DNA of 64,000 bases from assembly GCF_051903065.1 (NCBI RefSeq), contig NZ_CP178438.1; one strand, 5' to 3'. How positions within the stretch are numbered: the stretch's first letter is position 1; every line of letters begins with the position of its first letter. The notes under the pieces were generated by a model that made no database searches, was not told where the DNA came from, and worked only from the letters and a program-made list of their open reading frames with translations. Source of the DNA: Escherichia coli. GTDB taxonomy: Bacteria; Pseudomonadota; Gammaproteobacteria; Enterobacterales; Enterobacteriaceae. The position numbers were made by a program, and so were the translations under genes. This document shows positions 3,241 through 44,814 of this stretch, in pieces.

Positions 3241-3856
3241 GATTTACTAAAGGCTGCAACTGCTTCGCCATCCAGTCGGCAATAAACGGCTGGGCGTCGC
3301 GGTTGGGATGAATACCGTCATCCTGCATCCATTGTGGCTTGAGGTAGACCTCTTCCATAAAAAAGGGCAGCAGCGGAACATCAAACTCTTTGGCGAGTTT
3401 GGGGTAAATGGCGCTAAAGGCTTCATTATAACGGCGACCATAGTTTGCAGGCAGACGTATTTGCATTAACAATGGTTCAGCGTTGGCGGCTTTGACATCC
3501 TGCAAAATCTGGCGCAGCGTTTGCTCGGTTTGCTGTGGCTGAAAACCACGCAAACCGTCATTGCCGCCCAGTTCAACCAGCACCCAGCGCGGCTGATGCT
3601 GTTTCAGCAGAGCCGGAAGGCGCGCCAGCCCTTGTTGCGAGGTGTCGCCGCTGATGCTGGCATTAACTACCGACGTTTTACTCTGCCACTTATCATTCAA
3701 CAAGGCAGGCCAGGCCGCGCTGGCAGACATTCGATACCCGGCGCTCAGGCTATCACCCAGAATCAATAACGTGTCCGCTGCGGCGGCACGGAAGGTTAAC
3801 AGGACCAGGAACAGGAAGGGCAAATGCCAGCGGAAAACATTGTTGAAGTTCATCAT
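3230..3856 (-). CDS. tesA: Acyl-CoA thioesterase I / lysophospholipase L1 (SGNH hydrolase)
   Basis: GDSLSAG SGNH motif after a signal peptide; start taken at MMNFNN (208 aa) rather than the track start at 3886. Confidence 0.9.
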   Translation of the reverse strand: MMNFNNVFRWHLPFLFLVLLTFRAAAADTLLILGDSLSAGYRMSASAAWPALLNDKWQSKTSVVNASISGDTSQQGLARLPALLKQHQPRWVLVELGGNDGLRGFQPQQTEQTLRQILQDVKAANAEPLLMQIRLPANYGRRYNEAFSAIYPKLAKEFDVPLLPFFMEEVYLKPQWMQDDGIHPNRDAQPFIADWMAKQLQPLVNHDS

Positions 3857-6929: not shown

Positions 6930-7250
<321 letters not shown>

Positions 7251-7339
7251 TTTTGGCAATAAATATGAAACCAACTGTCATGTCGGTTTTTTTAAAGGCC
7301 GAAGGTGGTAAACCTTCGGCCTTAGCGACGTTTCCTCAG

Positions 7340-7423
7340 TTATTCAATAAACTGACGGATCAGTTCCAGCAGCGCGATTAGCGCCTTAAGAACGATGAGA
7401 ACTTTATCGAGAAAAGTTTTCAT
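7340..7423 (-). CDS. Candidate type I toxin: 27-aa hydrophobic peptide MKTFLDKVLIVLKALIALLELIRQFIE (DinQ/TisB-like)
   Basis: Not in the ORF track (too short); hand-translated. Strong SD AAGGGAG 6 nt upstream of ATG; single predicted TM helix; an in-frame upstream ATG at 7495 would give 51 aa but lacks an SD. Confidence 0.5.
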   Translation of the reverse strand: MKTFLDKVLIVLKALIALLELIRQFIE

Positions 7424-7648
7424 CCGTTGCTCCCTTAAGGGAGAAAGACAATCACAGCTTACCCTTACGTTGCCTGTAACTATGATTTTCTTCATGTGCT
7501 AGATGAGGACTGCCTCTCTCCAAATTAGAGCACCAGAATCAGCACCACCTGTATCCTGACCAGGACTTAAAAGTACTTTTCCGCACTGCGGTAATCCCTT
7601 GAGGCAGTATCACTACTAGCGTCGGGATTGTATCGCCAACATAGCTGT

Positions 7649-7677
7649 TTGAATATGTAGGCATCCTGACTTATAAT
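7649..7677 (+). promoter_or_regulatory. Near-consensus sigma70 promoter (TTGAAT - 17 bp - TATAAT) for the candidate antitoxin sRNA
   Basis: -35 TTGAAT 7649-7654, -10 TATAAT 7672-7677, predicted TSS about 7684. Confidence 0.5.
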
Positions 7678-7683
7678 TCACTT

Positions 7684-7772
7684 GCTAGATGAGGACTGTT
7701 TCATTTCTGCCCGGAACCACCAAGTCTTGGGCGGAAAAAATAAAAAAACCGACTGTCATGTCGGTTTTTTTA
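7684..7772 (+). ncRNA. Candidate trans-encoded antitoxin sRNA (about 90 nt)
   Basis: Runs from the promoter above to the hairpin plus T-run terminator at 7749-7771; its 5' end (7683-7698 TGCTAGATGAGGACTG) is the exact complement of the toxin transcript region at 7497-7512. Confidence 0.4.
7735..7771. terminator. Bidirectional Rho-independent terminator (A-run, CCGAC-TGTCAT-GTCGG hairpin, T-run)
   Basis: Would terminate selU on the minus strand and the candidate sRNA on the plus strand; a degenerate copy lies at 7267-7293. Confidence 0.6.
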
Positions 7773-7834
7773 TATCTGTATTCTGGTGCAACCATTCTGT
7801 TCTCACGACAATCGCCGTTTCAGAATACCGCCCA

Positions 7835-8944
<1,110 letters not shown>

Positions 8945-18261: not shown

Positions 18262-19569
18262 GTGTTTATGTTCAATTTTGCAGTGAGCCGCGAAAGCCTG
18301 TTATCAGGATTTCAGTGGTTTTTCTTTATTTTTTGCAACACGGTTGTGGTTCCTCCTACGCTACTTTCTGCTTTTCAGTTGCCGCAAAGTAGCCTGCTTA
18401 CACTCACGCAATATGCTTTTCTTGCTACCGCGCTGGCCTGCTTCGCTCAGGCGTTCTGCGGTCATCGTCGCGCTATTATGGAAGGGCCGGGTGGCCTGTG
18501 GTGGGGAACCATCCTTACTATCACCCTTGGCGAAGCATCGCGCGGGACACCGATCAACGATATCGCCACCAGCCTGGCGGTGGGGATTGCGCTCTCTGGC
18601 GTGCTGACGATGTTGATTGGTTTTAGCGGATTAGGTCATCGCCTGGCACGGTTATTTACGCCGTCGGTGATGGTCTTGTTTATGTTGATGCTGGGCGCGC
18701 AGCTGACCACTATCTTTTTCAAAGGTATGCTCGGGCTGCCGTTTGGCATAGCCGACCCGAATTTTAAAATTCAGTTACCGCCGTTCGCGCTCTCGGTGGC
18801 GGTGATGTGCCTGGTACTGGCGATGATTATCTTCCTGCCGCAACGTTTTGCCCGTTACGGCCTGCTGGTCGGCACGATAACAGGCTGGTTGTTGTGGTAC
18901 TTTTGCTTTCCTTCTTCGCATTCGCTCTCCGGTGAGTTGCACTGGCAGTGGTTCCCGCTAGGCAGCAGCGGTACGTTGTCGCCCGGAATTATTCTGACGG
19001 CGGTGATTACCGGTCTGGTAAATATCAGCAATACCTACGGTGCGATTCGGGGCACGGATGTTTTTTATCCGCAGCAGGGCGCGGGGAATACGCGTTATCG
19101 TCGTAGCTTTGTGGCGACCGGATTTATGACACTGATAACCGTGCCGCTGGCAGTAATTCCATTTTCACCGTTTGTTTCATCCATTGGTTTATTAACCCAG
19201 ACTGGCGATTACACGCGGCGTTCGTTTATTTATGGCAGCGTTATTTGCCTGCTGGTGGCGCTGGTTCCGGCACTCACGCGACTGTTTTGCAGTATCCCTT
19301 TACCCGTGAGTAGTGCGGTCATGCTGGTTTCTTATCTGCCTTTACTCTTTTCCGCGCTGGTGTTTAGCCAGCAAATAACGTTTACCGCTCGCAATATTTA
19401 TCGACTCGCATTGCCGTTATTTGTCGGCATATTTTTAATGGCATTACCGCCTGTGTATCTGCAAGACCTTCCATTAACGCTTCGTCCTCTGCTCAGTAAC
19501 GGCTTATTGGTCGGGATTTTACTGGCTGTTCTTATGGATAACCTTATTCCGTGGGAACGCATCGAATAA
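18262..19569 (+). CDS. ybbY: Putative purine/uracil-type permease YbbY
   Basis: 435-aa polytopic membrane ORF; true start may be a few codons in. Confidence 0.8.
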   Translation: MFMFNFAVSRESLLSGFQWFFFIFCNTVVVPPTLLSAFQLPQSSLLTLTQYAFLATALACFAQAFCGHRRAIMEGPGGLWWGTILTITLGEASRGTPINDIATSLAVGIALSGVLTMLIGFSGLGHRLARLFTPSVMVLFMLMLGAQLTTIFFKGMLGLPFGIADPNFKIQLPPFALSVAVMCLVLAMIIFLPQRFARYGLLVGTITGWLLWYFCFPSSHSLSGELHWQWFPLGSSGTLSPGIILTAVITGLVNISNTYGAIRGTDVFYPQQGAGNTRYRRSFVATGFMTLITVPLAVIPFSPFVSSIGLLTQTGDYTRRSFIYGSVICLLVALVPALTRLFCSIPLPVSSAVMLVSYLPLLFSALVFSQQITFTARNIYRLALPLFVGIFLMALPPVYLQDLPLTLRPLLSNGLLVGILLAVLMDNLIPWERIE

Positions 19570-19590
19570 TTTGTTGAAAAAGGATTGATA

Positions 19591-20736
19591 ATGAAGATTG
19601 TCATTGCGCCAGACTCTTTTAAAGAGAGCTTAAGTGCAGAAAAATGTTGTCAGGCAATTAAAGCCGGGTTTTCGACCCTCTTTCCCGATGCGAACTATAT
19701 CTGTTTGCCGATAGCGGATGGCGGCGAAGGGACGGTGGATGCGATGGTCGCCGCGACGGGCGGCAACATCGTGACGCTTGAAGTCTGCGGGCCGATGGGC
19801 GAAAAAGTGAATGCTTTTTATGGCCTTACCGGCGACGGGAAAACGGCGGTGATTGAGATGGCGGCAGCAAGTGGCCTGATGCTGGTCGCGCCTGAAAAGC
19901 GTAATCCGTTGCTGGCCTCCAGTTTTGGTACGGGGGAGTTAATTCGTCATGCGCTGGATAACGGCATTCGCCATATTATTCTCGGCATTGGCGGCAGTGC
20001 GACGGTCGACGGCGGTATGGGCATGGCGCAGGCGCTCGGTGTGCGTTTCCTTGATGCCGACGGTCAGGTGCTGGTGGCTAACGGCGGCAATTTAGCGCGC
20101 GTGGCAAGCATTGAGATGGATGAATGCGATCCGCGTCTGGCGAACTGCCATATTGAAGTAGCATGTGACGTTGATAACCCGCTGGTAGGGGCACGCGGCG
20201 CGGCGGCGGTGTTTGGCCCGCAAAAAGGGGCAACGCCGGAAATGGTCGAAGAGCTGGAACAGGGGCTGCAAAATTACGCCCGTGTTTTACAACAGCAAAC
20301 TGAAATCAACGTCTGCCAGATGGCGGGCGGCGGCGCTGCAGGCGGTATGGGTATTGCGGCGGCGGTATTTCTCAATGCGGATATTAAACCGGGTATTGAG
20401 ATTGTGTTGAATGCGGTCAATCTTGCGCAGGCAGTGCAGGGCGCAGCACTGGTGATCACCGGGGAAGGGCGCATCGACTCGCAAACGGCAGGCGGTAAAG
20501 CGCCGTTGGGCGTTGCGTCGGTGGCGAAGCAGTTTAATGTACCGGTGATTGGGATTGCTGGCGTATTGGGTGATGGCGTGGAAGTGGTGCACCAGTACGG
20601 CATTGACGCGGTATTCAGCATTTTGCCACGTCTGGCACCTTTAGCCGAAGTGCTCGCCAGCGGTGAAACCAATCTCTTCAACAGCGCGCGAAATATTGCT
20701 TGCGCCATTAAAATAGGTCAGGGAATTAAAAACTGA
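19591..20736 (+). CDS. glxK: Glycerate kinase II
   Basis: Start at [11 protein letters not shown] gives 381 aa; glycerate kinase fold. Confidence 0.9.
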
Positions 20737-20904
20737 CTCTTGCCTTTAAAGCGGATGCTATTTATTTCGTATAAGTGCGCAGTGCTCATGCCGGATGCTG
20801 CATGAGCACTATATCCTTCCTGAAAATCGCGCAAATTCTATATATTGCAGAGATCATGTAGGCCTGATAAGCGAAGCGCATCAGGCAATGTTACAAAAAA
20901 AGCC

Positions 20905-20935
20905 ACGGTATAAACCGTGGCAAAATCCAACATAG
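20905..20935 (-). terminator. Rho-independent terminator downstream of allE
   Basis: On the minus strand GCCACGG-TTTATA-CCGTGGC followed by TTTTTTT. Confidence 0.6.
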
Positions 20936-21408
20936 CTAAAAATAATCAGGCGAGTGGTATGACTTAAATCTCTACGTCGCGGTTGCAATCTTTCGAGTAA
21001 ATATAGCTGAACGCTTCACCACGCCCTACGCCATAACCAGCCTGTAAAGAATAAGCGCCCATAAAGATGTAATCGCCTTTTTTCACCGGGATCCAGTTAT
21101 TGTCGAGGTTATAAACCCCCTGACCGGAAAGAATATAGGCACCGTGTTCCTGAACGTGTGTTTCGATATAACCATGGCTGGCACCTGGTGCAAAAGAGAG
21201 GATATGCATGTTCATATCAAAACCTAACTCTTTGGGCAGAAAATCCAGCAGGATCACATCATCCATACCTTCATAGTGAATGCGTTCCAGTTCGCTGGCA
21301 TTGCCAGAAACCAGCCACGGTGCATGGCCTTCTACCAGAACATAGCGGCGCTTGGTGATGCTGCCAACTTACTGATTTAGTGTATGATGGTGTTTTTGAG
21401 GTGCTCCA

Positions 21409-21684
21409 GTGGCTTCTGTTTCTATCAGCTGTCCCTCCTGTTCAGCTACTGACGGGGTGGTGCGTAACGGCAAAAGCACCGCCGGACATCAGCGCTATCT
21501 CTGCTCTCACTGCCGTAAAACATGGCAACTGCAGTTCACTTACACCGCTTCTCAACCCGGTACGCACCAGAAAATCATTGATATGGCCATGAATGGCGTT
21601 GGATGCCGGGCAACAGCCCGCATTATGGGCGTTGGCCTCAACACGATTTTACGTCACTTAAAAAACTCAGGCCGCAGTCGGTAA
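21409..21684 (+). CDS. insA: IS1 InsA
   Basis: 91-aa ORF with zinc-finger [14 protein letters not shown]...CSHC. Confidence 0.95.
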
Positions 21685-22106
21685 CCTCGCGCATACAGCC
21701 GGGCAGTGACGTCATCGTCTGCGCGGAAATGGACGAACAGTGGGGCTATGTCGGGGCTAAATCGCGCCAGCGCTGGCTGTTTTACGCGTATGACAGGCTC
21801 CGGAAGACGGTTGTTGCGCACGTATTCGGTGAACGCACTATGGCGACGCTGGGGCGTCTTATGAGCCTGCTGTCACCCTTTGACGTGGTGATATGGATGA
21901 CGGATGGCTGGCCGCTGTATGAATCCCGCCTGAAGGGAAAGCTGCACGTAATCAGCAAGCGATATACGCAGCGAATTGAGCGGCATAACCTGAATCTGAG
22001 GCAGCACCTGGCACGGCTGGGACGGAAGTCGCTGTCGTTCTCAAAATCGGTGGAGCTGCATGACAAAGTCATCGGGCATTATCTGAACATAAAACACTAT
22101 CAATAA
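21603..22106 (+). CDS. insB: IS1 InsB' (transposase made as InsAB' by -1 frameshift)
   Basis: 167-aa ORF overlapping insA in the -1 frame. Confidence 0.9.
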
Positions 22107-22536
22107 GTTGGAGTCATTACCGCGGCGCTTATATAAAAAGATTTGGCTGTCTTCGGCCTGGGCGTTAACAAACGTCATTAAGGAGCCTGGCGGGCAATAA
22201 AGATAGCCACCTTCGCTTAAGGCAAATGTTTTGCCTTCGGCTTTGGCAGTGATATTTCCAGAGATCACATACAGGAACGTTTCAATGCCTTCGCCACCGA
22301 AGCCCTGTTGGTTGCCACCGTTTTGATGCAGTGTGACCAGATAATCAACAAAAGAGGCACCCAGCTTTGGCGTGGAGAGGATTGTCGCGTCACAATTTTC
22401 AAAGCCCGGAATAATATTTTTTACCAGACCGTCTGGTGTTAACAGTGCGAAATTACCGTGTTTCACAATCGCACGGTTAGCCAGTAAATCATCGCGGTAA
22501 CCGGTGACGTTATTTAAATATCCCATTTATGACTCC

Positions 22537-23772
22537 TTATTTCTGCCAGGCAAGTTGATAAAGCATGAGTGCCAACGTTTTGACCCCTTCGGCAAGGTCG
22601 GTAATATTGGTGCGTTCCGCCGGGTTATGGCTGATCCCGTTGATGCTGGGGATAAAAATCATGCAGGTTGGTACGCGAGGCGCGAAAATTTGCGCGTCGT
22701 GCCCGGCACCACTGTGCATCACCCGGTAATTCAGTTTTTCACTTTCACACAATTCTGTCAGGGTGGCGACCAGGTCCTTATTCATCGGCACGGGTTCTTC
22801 GTCCATCCATAAATCGATATCAATACCAATGTCCATTTCATCGCAAATCGCCCGCATGTCGTTTTCTAACTGTTGGGTGAAATCACGCAGCACGGCGGCG
22901 TCGGTATGACGACAATCAATGGTGAATGTGGTTTTACCCGGCACCACATTCACCGTATTCGGGCGCGGCTCTACTTTCCCAAAGGTCAGAACCAGCGGAT
23001 CGCCCATCTTTTTCGCTTTTTCGATCGACTGATGGCAAATGCGACTGAAAGCGTAAACCGTATCACGACGATAACCCATCGGCGTGGTGCCTGCATGGTT
23101 TGATTCGCCGTTCAGCGTCACCGTATAGCGACGTTGCCCGACAATTGCATTCACCACGCCAATTGATTGCCCATTACTTTCCAGCACACAGCCCTGTTCG
23201 ATATGCAGTTCGACAAAGGCTTTAATATCCTGACGCGGAGTTAGCGGGGCGTCCGGCAGAGTAAATCCGCAAGCCTTCATCGCATCGACAAAACTATTTC
23301 CTTTGGCATCACAGATATTCCGCACGTCGTCAGGATTCGCCAGCCCAAAGATATTTTTGCTGCCCCAGAAAACATACGGGAAGCGGCTGCCTTCTTCTTC
23401 CGCCATCGCCACCACTTCAACCGTACGTAACGGCGCGCCGTATTGCGTTTTCAACCAGTCAATTGCCAGCCACGCCGCCAGCGCGCCGAATTGCCCGTCG
23501 AGGTTACCGCCGTTAACCACGGTATCGATATGCGAACCGCTCAGAACCACTTCCTGTGGATATTCGGTGCCACTCAGGCGACCGTATAAATTCCCCACTT
23601 CATCGAAACGTGTTTCCAGCCCACTTGCGGCCATTCTTTTTTTAAATTGCTGCTGGGTTTCCAGCCATTCCGGCGAATAAAGTAAACGGGTCATCCCACC
23701 CGTTGGGTCTGCGCCAAAAGAGGAAAGCCAGGGCAGCGTTTCTTCTATGGCTTGACGAAAATGTGTAATCAT
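22537..23772 (-). CDS. allC: Allantoate amidohydrolase (M20 peptidase family)
   Basis: Track ORF to 23790; start at MITHFRQ gives 411 aa. Confidence 0.9.
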   Translation of the reverse strand: MITHFRQAIEETLPWLSSFGADPTGGMTRLLYSPEWLETQQQFKKRMAASGLETRFDEVGNLYGRLSGTEYPQEVVLSGSHIDTVVNGGNLDGQFGALAAWLAIDWLKTQYGAPLRTVEVVAMAEEEGSRFPYVFWGSKNIFGLANPDDVRNICDAKGNSFVDAMKACGFTLPDAPLTPRQDIKAFVELHIEQGCVLESNGQSIGVVNAIVGQRRYTVTLNGESNHAGTTPMGYRRDTVYAFSRICHQSIEKAKKMGDPLVLTFGKVEPRPNTVNVVPGKTTFTIDCRHTDAAVLRDFTQQLENDMRAICDEMDIGIDIDLWMDEEPVPMNKDLVATLTELCESEKLNYRVMHSGAGHDAQIFAPRVPTCMIFIPSINGISHNPAERTNITDLAEGVKTLALMLYQLAWQK

Positions 23773-23793
23773 AAGAAAGTCCTGTCTCAATAA

Positions 23794-24843
23794 TTATTGC
23801 GCAAAGGGATTTTTCGTTTCGTATGACGTGTTATAAAGCGCGTCGGAAATTAAATACTGGTAAATATCATCAACAATTTCGATGCCTTCGACGGCGGCTT
23901 TGCGTTGTTTAATATCCTGATCCTGTCCGGGATAATAAACCTGATTAAAACCGGGCGCGGGGGTAATGGCATTTAATTCGCGCATGGTCTGGCTAAGATG
24001 TTGACGGAATAATTCGCTGGAGGAGAAAAAGTTCGGGTTAATAACTACATGTAATTGCCCCAAATTACGCCCGGCGTGTAAATCGTCATACATCGAACTC
24101 ACCTGTCGCCCGAACGGTAAGCCGAGTAAGACGCCTGAGAGAACGTCAATCATCATCATCAGGCCATACCCTTTCGGCCCGGCTGCGGGGAGCAGAGCAT
24201 GTACCGCGAACGGATCGGTTGTTGGTGCACCGTTTTTATCGACCGCCCAGGTATCCGGGATAGACATATTACGCGAGCGGGCGTCGAGCACTTTTCCCCA
24301 TGCCTGTACGGTAGTCGCCATATCAAAGGTAAGGATCTCGTCGCCTTCTCCCGGCGCGGCAAAGGCCAGTGGGTTAGTACCGTAGTAAATTTCCGCGCCG
24401 CCAAACGGCACCACCATTGGATCGGACTGGCACATCGAAATGCCAATTAATCCGGCGCGGGCTGCCCGCTGCACAAAATAAGAGATTGCGCCGCTGTGAC
24501 CCATCCGGCTGATACCGACCACCGCAACGCCATTTTGCTGGGCGGTTTTGATGGCATGTTCCATACCCATTTTCGCCGCGACCTGTCCGGCGGCATTGTC
24601 GGCATGTAAAATTGCCGAGCACGGCCCGGTTTCCTCAAGACGAAACTCCGGTTCGCGGTTGGTGCCGCCTTTTGAAATGCGTTCCGCGTAGTATTCCACG
24701 CGCACCGCGCCATGAGAGTGGATCCCTCTGGCATCGGCGTAAACCAATACTTCAGCCACGGTTGCAGCGTGCTCACGTTTTAACCCAGCCTGGCAGAGTT
24801 TATTCTCAATTAGCTGGTGGAGTGTTTCCCGACTGATTTTCAT
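23794..24843 (-). CDS. allD: Ureidoglycolate dehydrogenase
   Basis: 349-aa ORF of the malate/L-lactate dehydrogenase-2 family. Confidence 0.9.
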   Translation of the reverse strand: MKISRETLHQLIENKLCQAGLKREHAATVAEVLVYADARGIHSHGAVRVEYYAERISKGGTNREPEFRLEETGPCSAILHADNAAGQVAAKMGMEHAIKTAQQNGVAVVGISRMGHSGAISYFVQRAARAGLIGISMCQSDPMVVPFGGAEIYYGTNPLAFAAPGEGDEILTFDMATTVQAWGKVLDARSRNMSIPDTWAVDKNGAPTTDPFAVHALLPAAGPKGYGLMMMIDVLSGVLLGLPFGRQVSSMYDDLHAGRNLGQLHVVINPNFFSSSELFRQHLSQTMRELNAITPAPGFNQVYYPGQDQDIKQRKAAVEGIEIVDDIYQYLISDALYNTSYETKNPFAQ

Positions 24844-25298
24844 CTGTCTTCCTTTTTAACGACGGTGTGAAGCATGACTGCAATTAACATACAGGGAAAA
24901 TATCTGGATTATGTGATCCAGACAGGCAAAAAAATATAGTTAGAATTTATTTGATAATCCGCTCGCTTTTAACCTGGTTTTTAAAACAACCACGCTTATT
25001 AAAAAATAACACGTAATAGCATGGCGGTTATTTGAATTCTTTTGTTAATAATCCCTGTGTGATATTCATCACCTTATTTACCCGTTGTCATCGATACCGT
25101 AATCGCCACATTAACACTGCTCGTGCAATTGCCATGGGTGCAATTTTTAAGGAGTTGTTATGATCCACGCCTTTATTAAAAAAGGGTGTTTTCAGGATTC
25201 GGTCAGTTTAATGATTATTTCACGAAAACTCAGCGAATCAGAAAATGTTGATGATGTTTCCGTAATGATGGGTACGCCCGCCAGGTAATGACTCCAAC

Positions 25299-25802
25299 TT
25301 ATTGATAGTGTTTTATGTTCAGATAATGCCCGATGACTTTGTCATGCAGCTCCACCGATTTTGAGAACGACAGCGACTTCCGTCCCAGCCGTGCCAGGTG
25401 CTGCCTCAGATTCAGGTTATGCCGCTCAATTCGCTGCGTATATCGCTTGCTGATTACGTGCAGCTTTCCCTTCAGGCGGGATTCATACAGCGGCCAGCCA
25501 TCCGTCATCCATATCACCACGTCAAAGGGTGACAGCAGGCTCATAAGACGCCCCAGCGTCGCCATAGTGCGTTCACCGAATACGTGCGCAACAACCGTCT
25601 TCCGGAGCCTGTCATACGCGTAAAACAGCCAGCGCTGGCGCGATTTAGCCCCGACATAGCCCCACTGTTCGTCCATTTCCGCGCAGACGATGACGTCACT
25701 GCCCGGCTGTATGCGCGAGGTTACCGACTGCGGCCTGAGTTTTTTAAGTGACGTAAAATCGTGTTGAGGCCAACGCCCATAATGCGGGCTGTTGCCCGGC
25801 AT
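25299..25802 (-). CDS. insB: IS1 InsB'
   Basis: Identical 167-aa protein to copy 1. Confidence 0.9.
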
Positions 25803-25996
25803 CCAACGCCATTCATGGCCATATCAATGATTTTCTGGTGCGTACCGGGTTGAGAAGCGGTGTAAGTGAACTGCAGTTGCCATGTTTTACGGCAGTGAGA
25901 GCAGAGATAGCGCTGATGTCCGGCGGTGCTTTTGCCGTTACGCACCACCCCGTCAGTAGCTGAACAGGAGGGACAGCTGATAGAAACAGAAGCCAC
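25721..25996 (-). CDS. insA: IS1 InsA
   Basis: Identical 91-aa protein to copy 1. Confidence 0.95.
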
Positions 25997-27613
25997 TGGA
26001 GCACCTCAAAAACACCATCATACACTAAATCAGTAAGTTGGCAGCATCACCCGCCCGCCAATAAAGCGTTATTAGATACCACAGGTTTCTGGCATGACGA
26101 TTTTAATAACGCCACGCCGAACGATATTTGCGTGGCAATTCGTAGCGAAGCGGCGGATGCGGGGATCGCGCAGGCGATTATGCAGCAGCTTGAAGAGGCG
26201 CTAAAACAACTGGCGCAGGGGTCAGGCAGCAGCCAGGCGTTGACGCAGGTGCGTCGCTGGGACAGTGCCTGTCAGAAATTACCCGATGTCAATCTGGCGC
26301 TGATTTCAGTGGCTGGCGAGTATGCGGCGGAGCTGGCGAATCAGGCGCTGGATCGCAACCTCAACGTGATGATGTTCTCCGATAACGTCACGCTGGAAGA
26401 TGAAATCCAACTTAAAACCCGCGCGCGGGAAAAAGGCTTGCTGGTGATGGGGCCGGACTGCGGTACGTCGATGATTGCCGGCACGCCGCTGGCTTTTGCT
26501 AACGTGATGCCGGAAGGCAACATTGGCGTCATTGGCGCTTCCGGTACCGGGATTCAGGAGCTGTGTTCGCAGATTGCGCTGGCAGGGGAGGGAATTACTC
26601 ACGCGATTGGCCTTGGCGGCCGCGACCTCAGCCGTGAAGTGGGCGGCATCAGTGCGCTGACGGCGCTGGAGATGCTCAGTGCAGACGAGAAAAGCGAAGT
26701 GCTGGCATTTGTTTCAAAACCACCTGCCGAAGCGGTGCTTCTGAAAATTGTTAATGCCATGAAAGCAACCGGCAAACCGACGGTGGCGCTGTTTTTAGGT
26801 TATACCCCGGCGGTGGCCCGCGACGAGAATGTCTGGTTTGCCTCCTCGCTGGATGAGGCCGCACGCCTGGCTTGCCTGCTTTCACGCGTTACGGCGCGAC
26901 GTAACGCGATAACGCCTGCCAGCAGCGGATTTATTTGCGGTTTGTATACCGGCGGTACGCTGGCTGCCGAAGCGGCGGGATTACTTGCCGGACACCTTGG
27001 CGTGGAAGCCGATGATGCCCATCATCACGGCATGATGCTCGACGCCGATGGTCACCAGATTATTGACCTCGGCGATGATTTCTACACCGTCGGGCGTCCC
27101 CATCCGATGATCGACCCAACCTTACGCAACCAGTTAATTGCCGATCTCGGCGCTAAACCGTCAGTGCGCGTATTGCTACTTGATGTCGTGATTGGCTTCG
27201 GCGCGACCGCCGATCCTGCCGCCTCGCTGGTAAGCGCCTGGCAAAAAGCCTGTGCTGCGCGTTCAGACAATCAACCACTGTATGCCATTGCCACGGTGAC
27301 AGGCACTGAACGTGACCCGCAATGCCGCTCGCAGCAAATCGCCACGCTGGAAGATGCGGGGATTGCGGTCGTGAGTTCGCTACCGGAAGCCACCTTGCTG
27401 GCGGCAGCGTTAATTCATCCGCTCTCGCCTGCCGCACAGCAACACACACCGTCATTACTGGAAAACGTCGCCGTGATTAACATCGGATTACGCAGTTTTG
27501 CGCTGGAGCTACAAAGCGCCAGCAAACCGGTTGTGCATTACCAATGGTCGCCAGTCGCCGGCGGCAATAAAAAACTGGCTCGTTTATTAGAACGTTTGCA
27601 ATAAGGGGTTCCC

Positions 27614-28873
27614 ATGTTTACATCAGTGGCGCAAGCCAATGCTGCGGTTATCGAACAAATTCGTCGCGCTCGTCCACACTGGCTGGATGTGCAACCGGCT
27701 TCTTCACTTATCAGCGAACTACACCCGGGCAAAACATTGCTTCACGCCGGGCCGCCAATGCGCTGGCAGGAGATGACCGGACCCATGAAAGGGGCGTGCG
27801 TGGGCGCATGTCTGTTGGAAGGTTGGGCGAAAGATGAAGCGCAGGCGCTGGCAATACTGGAGCAGGGGGAAGTGAACTTCATTCCTTGTCACCATGTGAA
27901 TGCCGTCGGGCCAATGGGCGGTATTACTTCTGCCAGTATGCCGATGCTGGTGGTCGAGAACGTGACCGACGGCAACCGGGCGTACTGCAACCTCAACGAA
28001 GGTATCGGCAAAGTGATGCGTTTTGGCGCTTACGGCGAAGATGTCCTGACTCGCCATCGCTGGATGCGCGATGTGTTAATGCCAGTATTAAGCGCGGCGC
28101 TGGGGCGCATGGAGCGCGGTATCGATCTTACCGCGATGATGGCGCAGGGCATTACGATGGGCGATGAGTTCCATCAACGCAATATTGCTTCCTCAGCACT
28201 GTTAATGCGTGCGTTGGCCCCACAAATTGCTCGCCTCGATCATGATAAACAGCACATCGCGGAAGTGATGGATTTCCTCAGCGTGACCGATCAGTTCTTC
28301 CTCAACCTTGCGATGGCTTACTGCAAGGCGGCGATGGATGCTGGCGCGATGATCCGCGCAGGCAGCATCGTCACGGCAATGACCCGCAACGGCAATATGT
28401 TCGGGATTCGGGTAAGCGGGCTGGGCGAACGCTGGTTTACTGCGCCTGTAAACACTCCGCAAGGTCTGTTTTTCACCGGCTTTTCGCAGGAGCAGGCGAA
28501 CCCGGATATGGGCGATAGCGCGATTACCGAAACCTTTGGTATCGGAGGTGCGGCAATGATCGCAGCGCCTGGCGTAACGCGCTTTGTCGGTGCGGGTGGC
28601 ATGGAAGCGGCAAGAGCGGTATCTGAAGAGATGGCGGAAATTTACCTTGAACGCAATATGCAGTTGCAGATCCCAAGCTGGGATTTTCAGGGCGCGTGCC
28701 TGGGGCTGGACATTCGTCGCGTGGTAGAAACCGGCATTACGCCACTCATCAATACCGGTATCGCCCATAAAGAGGCGGGGATCGGGCAGATTGGCGCAGG
28801 CACCGTGCGGGCACCGCTGGCGTGCTTTGAACAGGCGCTGGAAGCACTGGCTGAAAGCATGGGTATTGGTTGA
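27614..28873 (+). CDS. ylbE: DUF1116 protein YlbE (oxamate carbamoyltransferase component)
   Basis: Intact 419-aa ORF downstream of fdrA. Confidence 0.8.
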
Positions 28874-28883
28874 GGAACGCGCA

Positions 28884-29699
28884 ATGACGATCATCCATCC
28901 TCTGCTTGCCAGTAGTAGCGCACCGAATTATCGCCAGTCCTGGCGGTTAGCGGGAGTGTGGCGGCGGGCGATTAACCTGATGACGGAAAGCGGCGAACTG
29001 TTAACGCTGCATCGTCAGGGTAGTGGTTTCGGCCCCGGAGGATGGGTGCTTCGCCGTGCGCAATTCGATGCGTTATGCGGTGGATTATGCGGCAATGAAC
29101 GACCACAGGTTGTGGCTCAAGGGATTCGCCTCGGGCGTTTCACGGTTAAACAGCCACAGCGTTATTGTTTGCTGCGTATTACGCCGCCTGCGCATCCTCA
29201 ACCACTTGCAGCTGCATGGATGCAACGCGCGGAGGAAACCGGGCTTTTCGGGCCACTGGCGTTGGCGGCAAGCGATCCGCTGCCTGCTGAGTTACGCCAG
29301 TTTCGTCACTGTTTTCAGGCCGCGCTCAATGGCGTTAAGACCGACTGGCGGCACTGGCTGGGTAAAGGCCCCGGATTAACGCCGAGTCATGATGACACGC
29401 TGAGCGGAATGCTGCTGGCGGCCTGGTATTATGGCGCTTTAGATGCGCGCTCCGGTCGTCCGTTTTTTGCCTGTTCCGACAATCTGCAACTCGTTACCAC
29501 AGCGGTGAGCGTCAGTTATTTACGTTATGCCGCGCAAGGATATTTCGCCTCGCCACTCCTGCACTTTGTTCATGCTCTGAGTTGCCCGAAACGTACCGCT
29601 GTTGCGATTGATTCGCTGCTGGCGCTGGGGCATACGTCAGGGGCAGATACACTGCTGGGGTTCTGGCTTGGTCAACAATTATTACAAGGAAAACCATGA
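28884..29699 (+). CDS. ylbF: YlbF (DUF2877; oxamate carbamoyltransferase component)
   Basis: Track ORF starts 28791; start at [11 protein letters not shown] gives 271 aa. Confidence 0.8.
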
Positions 29700-30589
29700 A
29701 AACACTGGTTGTAGCTCTTGGGGGCAATGCCTTGCTTCAGCGCGGTGAGGCGCTGACGGCAGAAAATCAATATCGCAATATCGCCAGTGCTGTACCCGCG
29801 CTGGTACGCCTGGCCCGTTCTTATCGGCTGGCGATTGTTCACGGCAACGGGCCGCAGGTGGGGCTGCTGGCGTTACAGAATCTGGCGTGGAAAGAGGTAG
29901 AACCGTATCCGCTGGATGCGCTGGTGGCGGAAAGCCAGGGGATGATTGGCTATATGCTGGCGCAGAGTTTGAGCGCACAGCCGCAGATGCCGCCTGTCAC
30001 GACGGTGCTGACGCGCATTGAGGTTTCGCCTGATGATCCGGCGTTTTTGCAGCCAGAGAAATTTATTGGTCCGGTTTATCAGCCAGAAGAACAAGAGGCA
30101 CTGGAAGCGGCTTACGGCTGGCAGATGAAACGTGATGGTAAATATTTACGCCGGGTGGTGGCGTCTCCGCAACCGCGTAAAATTCTCGACAGCGAAGCCA
30201 TCGAGTTGTTGCTCAAAGAGGGGCATGTGGTGATTTGCAGTGGCGGCGGCGGTGTGCCTGTGACGGGTGACGGAGCAGGGAGTGAAGCAGTGATTGATAA
30301 AGATCTCGCCGCTGCGTTGCTCGCCGAGCAGATTAATGCAGATGGACTGGTGATCCTCACCGATGCTGATGCGGTATATGAAAACTGGGGAACGCCGCAG
30401 CAACGTGCCATTCGCCATGCCACACCGGATGAGTTAGCGCCATTTGCCAAAGCCGATGGTTCGATGGGGCCGAAGGTAACGGCGGTGAGTGGTTATGTCA
30501 GAAGCCGTGGTAAACCCGCGTGGATTGGGGCGTTATCGCGGATTGAAGAGACGCTGGCGGGCGAAGCGGGGACCTGTATTTCGCTGTAG
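29696..30589 (+). CDS. ybcF: Carbamate kinase-like protein
   Basis: 297-aa ORF; amino-acid kinase fold with N-terminal GGNAL motif; overlaps ylbF stop. Confidence 0.85.
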
Positions 30590-43930: not shown

Positions 43931-44007
43931 GCGCCCTTAGCTCAGTTGGATAGAGCAACGACCTTCTAAGTCGTGGGCCGCAGGTTCGAATCCTGCAGGG
44001 CGCGCCA
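43931..44007 (+). tRNA. argU: tRNA-Arg (anticodon UCU, reads AGA)
   Basis: GCGCCCTTAGCTCAGTTGGATAGAGCAACGACCTTCTAAGTCGTGGGCCGCAGGTTCGAATCCTGCAGGGCGCGCCA; cloverleaf with TCT anticodon and 3' CCA. Confidence 0.95.
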
Positions 44008-44052
44008 TTTCTTCTTCATTTATGCCCGTCTTATCCGTTTCCGCTTTGCCCT

Positions 44053-44814
44053 TCACCACATCACTTTTTGTCGCTGTTTGGCGAGATAATTCAACGGTGT
44101 CAGGCCGTAAAACGCCTTAAAAACAGAGATAAAGTACGACGTGCTGCTATAGCCACATAATTGCGCCACCTGAGTGATATTTTTGTTATCCATCAATAAC
44201 ATCTGTACGGCGTAACGCATACGACACTCTGTGACAATCTGGCTATAGCTGGTATTTTCGTTTTTTAATTTCTTTTTGAGCAGGCTGGGGCTTAAACATA
44301 GCGAACTGGCGACAATTCGCAGATTCCAGTAATGCTGAATATCGCTTTGAATAATGCGGCAGACGCTGTCGCGGACGCTGCTGCGTAAGATATACATCAG
44401 TAGGGCAATAAACCGCGATTGCTCAAGAAAGTTAGACAATACGGTAAAAAGCAATGCGCGTGTCAACTCCGCTTCGCAGGGTTTGCTGGGTTGCTGCTTG
44501 CTGTGGTTGGCGGCTAGCCGGAACACTTCCGGTGTACGGCTATGACAAGCGATAACCGGGGTAGCCAGCCGCGACCAGGGCTTTACACAGGTTAAGTTCT
44601 TATTTAAAAACAACAGATAATCGTTGATGATGTTACGGTTGATGTGGGTGATTAATACGTGATTTAACGTTGAGAGTTCAATGACGTTATTGTTGCACGC
44701 GAAGGCGGCCAGGTAGTTTTTCGGAAGGGTAAACGTAGCATGGTTATTGACGCTTACCTCTACCTCTTTTTCGGTCAGGATCACCACGCAAGGTTCACTG
44801 CTGCTCAATTGCAT
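44053..44814 (-). CDS. envY: AraC-family transcriptional regulator EnvY
   Basis: 253-aa ORF with C-terminal AraC helix-turn-helix. Confidence 0.85.
   Translation of the reverse strand: MQLSSSEPCVVILTEKEVEVSVNNHATFTLPKNYLAAFACNNNVIELSTLNHVLITHINRNIINDYLLFLNKNLTCVKPWSRLATPVIACHSRTPEVFRLAANHSKQQPSKPCEAELTRALLFTVLSNFLEQSRFIALLMYILRSSVRDSVCRIIQSDIQHYWNLRIVASSLCLSPSLLKKKLKNENTSYSQIVTECRMRYAVQMLLMDNKNITQVAQLCGYSSTSYFISVFKAFYGLTPLNYLAKQRQKVMW

Follow-up and report, generated by a model that had tools for sequence, protein, structure and literature searches.

Two copies of the insertion sequence IS1A, lying in opposite orientation within the allantoin genes allE and fdrA (allF), were found in the window, that is, the whole 64-kb stretch of Escherichia coli DNA that was analysed. 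Very probably the same IS1A inserted twice, in separate simple events, in a commensal clone near-identical to strains 23CRST027 and 23CRST031, and the co-location would come from IS1 biology. An IS1 pair of this kind in allE and allF/fdrA is ordinary, and the annotation of two near-identical public genomes already shows it.

The IS1A pair and the genes it interrupts

Positions 19000-29000 were searched for inverted repeats, and a single one was returned. Its two arms are the IS1A copies of Table 1; each was 768 nt long, they were 100% complementary, and 3162 nt separated them. A 60-nt probe from the IS1 left end gave two matches in the 64-kb window, both of them to this pair, with 0 expected from shuffled sequence. 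The left ends (IRL) face outward and the transposase genes inward, with IRR at both inner ends. The 23-bp terminal inverted repeats were imperfect (IRL, GGTGATGCTGCCAACTTACTGAT; IRR, GGTAATGACTCCAACTTATTGAT) and matched at 18 of 23 positions.

The 91-aa InsA and 167-aa InsB' reading frames matched NCBIfam model NF033558 (transpos_IS1) at profile positions 1-81 and 75-199, and the A6C motif for -1 frameshifting (AAAAAAC) was located at IS1 position 307. By length, terminal inverted repeats, insA/insB' frameshift and 9-bp duplication both copies are members of the IS1 family. The element is annotated in 23CRST027 as "IS1-like element IS1A family transposase" (WP_103215986.1), an accession common to the window's copies and to the IS1A of REL606 and DLI.6n. 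The 9-bp direct duplications were exact at both copies, by direct reading and by script. The preliminary description had reported two identical IS1 copies in opposite orientation, about 3.2 kb apart and with matched duplications, and this was borne out at 768 bp, 100% identity and exact 9-bp pairs.

Table 1. Positions in the window of the two IS1A copies, their target-site duplications and the surrounding allantoin genes.
Feature	Position	Strand	Description
allE 3' fragment	20964-21353	-	(S)-ureidoglycine aminohydrolase, C-terminal part
Copy 1 target-site duplication, left	21345-21353		GCGGCGCTT
IS1A copy 1	21354-22121	+	768 bp; IRL at 21354; within allE, transcription opposite to allE
IS1A copy 1, insA	21409-21684		Open reading frame
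IS1A copy 1, insB'	21603-22106		Open reading frame
IS1A copy 1, A6C frameshift motif	21660
Copy 1 target-site duplication, right	22122-22130		GCGGCGCTT, followed by AT-rich run ATATAAAAAG
allE 5' fragment	22122-22526	-	405 nt, codons 1-135; start ATG at 22526
allC	22537-23772	-	Allantoate deiminase, intact, 411 aa; inside invertible segment; annotation transferred
allD	23794-24843	-	Ureidoglycolate dehydrogenase, intact, 349 aa; inside invertible segment
Divergent allD / allF (fdrA) promoter region	24844-25159		316 bp, AT 63-64%, intact; inside invertible segment
fdrA/allF 5' fragment	25160-25283	+	124 nt, broken in codon 42
Copy 2 target-site duplication, left	25275-25283		CGCCCGCCA
IS1A copy 2	25284-26051	-	768 bp; exact reverse complement of copy 1; IRL at 26051; within fdrA/allF, transcription opposite to fdrA
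Copy 2 target-site duplication, right	26052-26060		CGCCCGCCA
fdrA/allF 3' remainder	26052-27604	+	Separated from own promoter and start codon
allG (ylbE)	27614-28873	+	Intact ORF, downstream of insertion, allFGHK operon
allH (ylbF)	28884-29699	+	Intact ORF, downstream of insertion, allFGHK operon
allK (ybcF)	29696-30589	+	Intact ORF, downstream of insertion, allFGHK operon

The first insertion follows nt 405 (codon 135) of allE, with which the allD-allC-allE operon ends, and the second follows nt 124 (in codon 42) of fdrA/allF, with which the allFGHK operon begins. Each IS1 was excised in silico together with one duplication, which gave intact reading frames for allE (261 aa), allC (411 aa), allD (349 aa) and fdrA/allF (555 aa). 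With both ORFs whole again, the identification of the interrupted genes as allE and fdrA was confirmed. The IS-free reconstruction aligned with REL606 (NC_012967, E. coli B) in a single colinear alignment of 5,247 bp at 98.1% identity. Intact in the window were allS, allA, allR, gcl, hyi, glxR, allW, allB, ybbY, glxK, allC, allD, allG, allH and allK.

From established pathway knowledge, the allE insertion is predicted to abolish AllE function. The allFGH genes encode oxamic transcarbamylase and form part of the operon allFGHK (PMC11326118), and the allF promoter is acted on by AllS and ArcA (PMC12535856). Silencing of allG, allH and allK through polarity of the allF insertion is likely, judging from the arrangement of the operon. 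The oxamate branch would then be gone through loss of the AllFGH transcarbamylase, and probably AllK with it, while the remainder of the allantoin cluster would stay intact.

Origin of the pair

In the proposed sequence of events each IS1A insertion would have made its own 9-bp target duplication, and the bracketed 3,162 bp would be native DNA made up of allE', allC, allD, the divergent promoters and 'allF. A matched 9-bp duplication was found at each IS1, which upholds the earlier claim of two independent insertion events. Mechanism, length (768 bp), 9-bp duplications and adjoining AT-rich DNA are all like those of other IS1A simple insertions that have made pseudogenes in E. coli and Shigella chromosomes; what sets this clone apart is only the site pair (allE codon 135, fdrA codon 42).

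The window was near-identical to 23CRST027 and 23CRST031, two human faecal isolates from Ecuador, with 1 SNP over the 64-kb region. Of 5,426 complete genomes, no others carried the two insertions together, and the segment is un-inverted in both strains. Both strains carry a third insertion sequence, IS903B, at the 3' end of allC. In REL606 allE, allC, allD and fdrA are intact and the locus is without IS1. An origin in the B lineage, the framing given to the window in the preliminary description, was therefore rejected, the window matching the Ecuador isolates.

An assembly artefact, with one or both IS1 copies misplaced through collapsed or scattered repeats, was considered because IS1 is a multi-copy repeat. 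One IS1 copy of 23CRST027 has a 1-nt deletion and one of 23CRST031 is 99.8% identical, differences that resemble long-read consensus noise. Against this, the 9-bp duplications are perfect at both sites, the reading frames are precisely restored on excision, and the four IS1 junctions of the window recur identically in the two independently assembled complete genomes. The probability of an artefact is considered negligible.

IS1-flanked composite transposons exist, among them Tn9, with direct IS1 copies, and Tn1681, in which, as in the window, inverted full IS1 copies surround a cargo of a few kilobases. The 4,698-bp unit IS1-allE'-allC-allD-'fdrA-IS1 could be such a transposon, or have arrived as one, and its outer ends are two IRL ends that are in principle usable together. 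The outer 9-bp flanks differ, however (GCGGCGCTT and CGCCCGCCA), with a matched pair at each IS instead, and the interior carries on natively from the genes on either side, its order and orientation ancestral and colinear with REL606. No plasmid record carried the unit at >=80% coverage. Unlike Tn9 and Tn1681, the unit was built in place by two insertions, has native chromosomal cargo and lacks a shared outer duplication. Arrival as a composite transposon, which the preliminary description had also discounted, is thus refuted by the unshared outer duplication, the native cargo and the absence of a plasmid copy, and is left with almost no probability.

Inversion of the bracketed segment

An identical 768-bp inverted IS1 pair 3.2 kb apart is a substrate for RecA-dependent inversion, and the inversion potential of the window's pair is textbook. 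On the sequence, homologous recombination between the copies could flip the segment, and the two IS1 copies could also mobilise it as a unit. After inversion one IS would stay at each end and the inner duplication halves would be swapped. Such a swap was looked for with a negative result, the left flank of copy 1 being the reverse complement of neither copy 2 flank. An inverted interior with swapped duplications was absent from both sister genomes and from all 5,426 genomes, where an isomer would have shown as a match to the outer flank plus IS1 (86% coverage) that lacked the inner flank. Matches at 86% coverage were limited to LR-29-1, DLI.6n and strain 1506, all of them IS1-bounded deletions. 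The assembled sequences of the window, 23CRST027 and 23CRST031 all had the same un-inverted orientation.

The earlier statement that no inversion has yet occurred stands in part. The matched duplications and the colinear interior show that there is no net inversion, but the duplications give parity only, i.e. an even number of flips and not proof of zero. An inversion between identical inverted IS copies creates no new local junction and is therefore detectable only by reads or queries that span the 768-bp element; inversions between IS copies are invisible to short reads (PMC5009759). Examples of IS-mediated inversion have been described (PMC5009759, PMC4173774), including a 1.49-Mb IS1-IS1 inversion in LTEE population Ara-1 (PMC4173774). 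Identical inverted IS1 copies were the RecA substrate there as they are in the window, but in Ara-1 the inversion occurred, over 1.49 Mb, whereas that of the window is a potential only, over 3.2 kb. Since a flip of the 3.2-kb segment repairs neither gene, no phenotype switch is expected.

A one-step origin would also account for two copies that are identical and inverted. IS1 can transpose replicatively, and an intramolecular event of this kind both duplicates and inverts; a later homologous re-inversion would restore the native state, with a predicted end state identical to that observed. This route requires two rare events where one simple insertion is enough, and no trace of an inverted or swapped intermediate was found in the sister strains or in the 5,426 genomes. 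It is regarded as very improbable.

Co-location, target sites and selection

That both hits fall in one catabolic module had been taken in the preliminary description to suggest relaxed or negative selection on the pathway. This inference was not sustained in view of chance, local hopping, recurrent target zones and the intact state of the other genes. The sister chromosome (23CRST027) has ~37 IS1 places, for which 1.06 pairs within 3.93 kb are expected by chance (P of at least one = 0.65), as are ~2.4 19-kb bins with two or more IS1 copies; the calculation assumes uniform IS1 placement and leaves the positions of the other ~35 copies unused.

Of 233 new IS1A insertions recorded in mutation-accumulation lines, 21 lay <5 kb from an existing copy, against 2.6 expected, an excess of ~8-fold (PMC5009759). 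The 3.2-kb spacing in the window is inside this enriched range of the proximal insertion bias of IS1A and IS5, and the second copy probably arose from the first by such a hop. In contrast to those local hops, we infer the parent-daughter relation and the order of the two events, because none of the 5,426 genomes had one exact insertion without the other. The IS1 of DLI.6n is also 100% identical to that of the window, so that identity of the two copies is weak evidence of such descent.

Independent IS1 sites in other strains were placed on the IS-free reconstruction (5.2 kb). In allE they were at 285-293, 335-343, 340-347 and 434-442. The window's own allE junction (446) was reused in LR-29-1, with the same IS1-end/GCGGCGCTT junction but a 96.9%-identical IS1 variant. 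The allD-fdrA spacer was hit at 3363 (two variants) and 3394 (two strains), and the 5' end of fdrA at 3588 (two variants), 3611-3619, 3681 and 3657/8-3665, the last with three IS1 variants in both orientations; the window's fdrA site is 3599-3607. Local AT content was above the regional mean at 10 of 11 mapped IS1 sites. Reuse of a site by different IS1 variants argues for target preference rather than selection.

Several candidate patterns were discarded. The insertions of 13P484A and DLI.6n, at first taken as same-site, were offset by 12 bp and 11 bp on junction mapping, which confines exact reuse to the sites given above. An apparent orientation bias (all mapped allE IS1 copies in "+") was an artefact of joining pieces on one strand only. 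IHF sites as an explanation of the hot zones were dropped, with no WATCAANNNNTTR match in the 5.2-kb IS-free reconstruction. Regional IS1 enrichment was unsupported against the genome-wide mean, with ~7-9 IS1 per kb near allE and fdrA, summed over genomes, and ~12 per kb on average; this null is crude, and gene-level controls are more informative.

As an observation apart, the exact-site reuse by IS1 variants in allE and allF is a possible natural data set for IS1 target specificity.

For the gene-level controls, IS1 within ~1 kb was counted in one orientation only, with kinship ignored, in the 5,426 complete genomes. There were 17 such genomes for allE and 18 for fdrA, compared with 26 for sfmH, 12 for nfrB, 1 for fetAB and 0 for pheP; AT content at two of these four control sites, pheP and nfrB, is lower than at the test sites. 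In IS1 load, the surroundings of allE and fdrA resemble those of the dispensable sfmH and nfrB and not those of fetAB and pheP, which partially supports tolerance of IS1 by the module. Because the load is far above that of fetAB and pheP, weak purifying selection is a real contributing factor, of a permissive kind. Loss of the pathway is evidently tolerated.

A stronger alternative is that in this lineage selection on the allantoin module was relaxed, or favoured its loss, and that the module was hit twice for that reason. The similarity of its IS1 load to that of sfmH and nfrB is in its favour, as are IS1-bounded deletions of most of the cluster in DLI.6n, 1506, PK8276, STEC409, ETEC1746, STEC2018-553, LR-29-1 and TUM1881 and the third IS of the sister strains. 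A second flagged pseudogene was present in some IS1-hit strains (allC in 13P484A, allD in WCHEC040047, gcl in PK8276 and hyi in LR-29-1). In a compensatory variant, the second hit blocks flux upstream, at allE, after loss of allF has given dead-end oxalurate or oxalate. A delta-allF strain lacked oxamate, rerouted flux to glyoxylate and oxalate, and overproduced oxalate (PMC11326118), which agrees with this variant; it is pure conjecture nonetheless, because the order of the hits is not fixed by the sequence. On the other side, chance or local hopping already predicts the co-location, different IS1 variants have reused exact sites, a sign of target preference, and the load comparison rests on four control sites, two of them less AT-rich, with kinship ignored. 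The other cluster genes of the window are all intact, and there is thus no signature of prolonged decay. Nothing specific on pseudogenisation of allantoin genes in E. coli was found in the literature. Selection as the cause of the two hits is judged unlikely.

A further reading, which is less likely still, is that natural IS1 hot spots exist at the 5' end of allF/fdrA (a zone of ~95 bp, codons ~35-66), in the allD-allF spacer and in mid-allE, with particular nucleotides used again by divergent IS1 variants in unrelated E. coli, and that anaerobic allantoin catabolism is recurrently lost in gut E. coli through repeated IS1 hits and IS1-bounded deletions. The loss may be adaptive, and a second hit, e.g. 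in allE, may offset the dead-end flux that follows inactivation of allF. If this were true, the window's pair would be one instance of a convergent pattern and not a coincidence.

For the co-location, IS1 biology is the best explanation, in preference to selection specific to the pathway; the pair would reflect the ~37 IS1 copies, local hopping of IS1A and AT-richer, recurrent target zones. In an IS-rich genome, two neighbouring IS copies can speak for selection only once chance, local hopping and target preference have been allowed for. The pair matters little beyond the annotation of the strain, apart from being a small potential substrate for inversion or mobilisation. The clone itself is predicted to be without AllE and without the ATP- and NH3-yielding oxamate branch of anaerobic allantoin use.

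Structure of the IS1 pair and of the interrupted genes

A repeat search of 19000-29000 returned a single inverted repeat, with 768-nt arms that are 100% complementary and 3,162 nt apart, and a 60-nt IS1 left-end probe matched the 64-kb window twice, at these same two copies (chance expectation, none). The element is IS1 and every hallmark is present: the terminal repeats are identical at 18 of 23 positions, the AAAAAAC frameshift motif of copy 1 lies at 21660, and both transposase ORFs, InsA and InsB', have hits to NCBIfam NF033558. In both copies the IRL end points outward and the transposase genes are read inward, antiparallel to the gene that the copy interrupts. Each copy has its own exact 9-bp duplication (junction reading and script), so the preliminary description was right in reporting two identical, opposite copies from separate transposition events.

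The allD-allC-allE transcription unit ends with allE, in which copy 1 follows nt 405 (codon 135); fdrA-ylbE-ylbF-ybcF begins with fdrA, in which copy 2 follows nt 124 (in codon 42). In-silico removal of each IS1 with one duplication restored allE (261 aa), allC (411 aa), allD (349 aa) and fdrA (555 aa), and against E. coli B REL606 the 5,247-bp reconstruction gave a single colinear alignment, 98.1% identical. Today fdrA, ylbE and ylbF go under the names allF, allG and allH, the product being oxamic transcarbamylase; with a carbamate kinase gene they form the allFGHK operon, and a delta-allF strain makes no oxamate, its allantoin carbon passing to glyoxylate and oxalate (PMC11326118). The allF promoter is activated by AllS and ArcA (PMC12535856). 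We infer that the window strain is without AllE and without the oxamate branch; the fdrA insertion is probably polar on allGHK. Since the remaining cluster genes in the window are all intact, the inactivation looks recent and not like the endpoint of long decay.

Insertion sites, by position in the window or on the IS-free reconstruction (junctions of 20 other genomes mapped)
Feature	Position	Scale	Remarks
Copy 1, IS1A in allE	21354-22121 (+)	window	
Copy 1 direct repeat	21345-21353, 22122-22130	window	GCGGCGCTT
Copy 2, IS1A in fdrA	25284-26051 (-)	window	
Copy 2 direct repeat	25275-25283, 26052-26060	window	CGCCCGCCA
allE	65-850	reconstruction	
fdrA start	3484	reconstruction	
IS1 sites in allE, other genomes	285-293, 335-343, 340-347, 434-442	reconstruction	
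allE junction	446	reconstruction	window's own; reused in LR-29-1 (locus L009, 6001-6768), IS1 variant only 96.9% identical, background 98.1% identical
allD-fdrA spacer	3363	reconstruction	two IS1 variants
allD-fdrA spacer	3394	reconstruction	two strains
fdrA 5' end	3588	reconstruction	two IS1 variants
fdrA 5' end	3611-3619	reconstruction	4 bp from window site 3599-3607
fdrA 5' end	3657/8-3665	reconstruction	three IS1 variants, both orientations
fdrA 5' end	3681	reconstruction	

Insertion history and possible inversion

A script run on the four junctions found neither a common outer duplication nor a swapped-duplication pattern. Arrival of the pair as a composite transposon is thus rejected, in line with the earlier proposal, and none of the plasmid records searched contained the unit. 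The further claim that no inversion has yet occurred stands only as no net inversion, since matched duplications are evidence for an even number of flips and nothing more. Replicative intramolecular transposition of one IS1, giving an inverted copy and an inverted interval, followed by one homologous re-inversion, predicts exactly the observed state but is less parsimonious than simple insertions.

Because both inner ends are IRR ends, inversion yields no new local junction; a 300-nt inversion-junction query matched the native junction on the opposite strand and is blind to isomers. Inversions between IS copies are also invisible to short reads (Lee et al., PMC5009759). In IS1-plus-flank queries an isomer would appear as outer flank plus IS1 with the inner flank missing. 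No inversion isomer was found in 5,426 genomes, such rows coming only from LR-29-1, DLI.6n and strain 1506, which have IS1-bounded deletions. In principle the pair could invert the DNA between its copies or be mobilised as an IS1-flanked unit; inverting the segment (allE', allC, allD, both divergent promoters and 'allF) would restore neither allE nor fdrA.

Relatives of the window

Among 5,426 complete E. coli genomes, both insertions were present only in 23CRST027 and 23CRST031 (human faeces, Santo Domingo, Ecuador), to which both IS1-plus-flank queries aligned end to end in a single piece. The orientation is identical and un-inverted in both sister genomes, the four junctions are exact in 23CRST027, and the RefSeq annotation of that strain already has IS1A transposases and allE and fdrA pseudogene fragments. 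As IS1A insertions go the pair is ordinary, and two public genomes already contain it in annotated form. A B-lineage comparison had been suggested; in REL606 the four genes are all intact and the locus is free of IS1, so the window is not of the B lineage.

The window differs from 23CRST027 by one SNP and one 1-nt indel (within an IS1), and over 64 kb the only structural difference is that the sister strains carry an additional IS903B, at a point corresponding to window 22554-22563 at the allC 3' end. Absent from the window, this element lies within the final allC codons (7665-8719 of the 23CRST027 locus, L001), is annotated as frameshifted and is a third IS in the same operon. One IS1 copy of 23CRST027 (L001 11450-12216) is 767 bp long, with a 1-nt deletion, and is annotated as frameshifted; in 23CRST031 the other copy is 99.8% identical, and both window copies are perfect. 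These differences are probably long-read consensus errors and not real.

Elsewhere, the ybbP-mnmH interval (window 6959-7773) has matches to ES036 and to AgrB antisense RNA and a tandem pair of REP-type naRNA4 (RF02564) copies. The adjoining gene carries the annotation DinQ type I toxin in 23CRST027, and the interval appears to be a second site with a dinQ/agrB-like toxin-antitoxin paralogue. In DLI.6n, as in K-12, an rhsD element lies between ybbP and mnmH. At ~43931-44814 envY directly follows tRNA-Arg (argU) and the DLP12-type prophage is absent; in REL606 such a prophage is integrated at the argU site (intD onward).

Target preference, co-location and tolerance of pathway loss

Six mapped IS1 events fall inside a ~95-bp stretch of fdrA (reconstruction 3588-3681). 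Strains called unrelated reuse exact junctions: LR-29-1 at the window's own site, and the strains of loci L004/L017, L002/L013/L022, L014/L020 and L015/L019. Four of the five reused sites hold different IS1 variants (divergence up to 9%), sometimes in opposite orientation; at 3394 a single IS1A variant is found in both strains, which may be of common ancestry. The reuse points to fine-scale IS1 target hot spots. Local AT content is above average at 10 of 11 mapped sites. Each window target, like the reused PEC178/D3 site, is a G+C-rich 9-mer directly beside an A+T-rich run, which fits the known preference of IS1 for AT-rich targets (PMC5009759); no IHF consensus is present in the IS-free reconstruction.

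Two hits in one module had been taken to suggest relaxed or negative selection. Co-location by itself does not imply this, given chance, local hopping and target preference. With ~37 IS1 places in the sister chromosome, uniform placement gives 1.06 expected pairs within 3.93 kb (probability of at least one, 0.65) and ~2.4 expected 19-kb bins with at least two copies. Of 233 new IS1A insertions in mutation-accumulation lines, 21 lay within 5 kb of an existing copy (2.6 expected), and most recombination involved IS copies separated by 1-3 kb (PMC5009759).

For approximate calibration, genomes with IS1 in one orientation within ~1 kb of the test site were counted among the 5,426 (raw counts, kinship ignored): 17 for allE and 18 for fdrA, with a small set of four controls at 26 (sfmH, cryptic fimbriae), 12 (nfrB, phage N4 receptor), 1 (fetAB) and 0 (pheP). 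IS1-bounded deletions remove most of the allantoin cluster in many strains (loci L004, L005, L009, L015, L016, L017, L019 and L022), with junctions rhsD/IS1/'fdrA, gcl/IS1/'fdrA, hyi/IS1/'fdrA, hyi/IS1/allE', ybbP/IS1/.../IS1/'fdrA and ybcF'/IS1/fdrA'. In STEC2018-553 a separate pair of inverted IS1 copies flanks a 183-bp segment spanning the fdrA start. Some IS1-hit strains have a second module gene flagged for a frameshift or internal stop: allC in 13P484A (L003), allD in WCHEC040047 (L018), gcl in PK8276 (L005) and hyi in LR-29-1. Such flags may reflect secondary decay, or errors of long-read assembly.

Most likely, one IS1A insertion came first and a nearby second one later, both into preferred targets, in a commensal clone, rich in IS1, that tolerated loss of anaerobic allantoin catabolism. 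Convergent, possibly adaptive, IS1-driven pathway loss at true hot spots is improbable. By the IS1 counts, the cluster deletions and the second pseudogenes, the module is thus akin to dispensable DNA in some of the species, and the selection claim is to that extent borne out in part.
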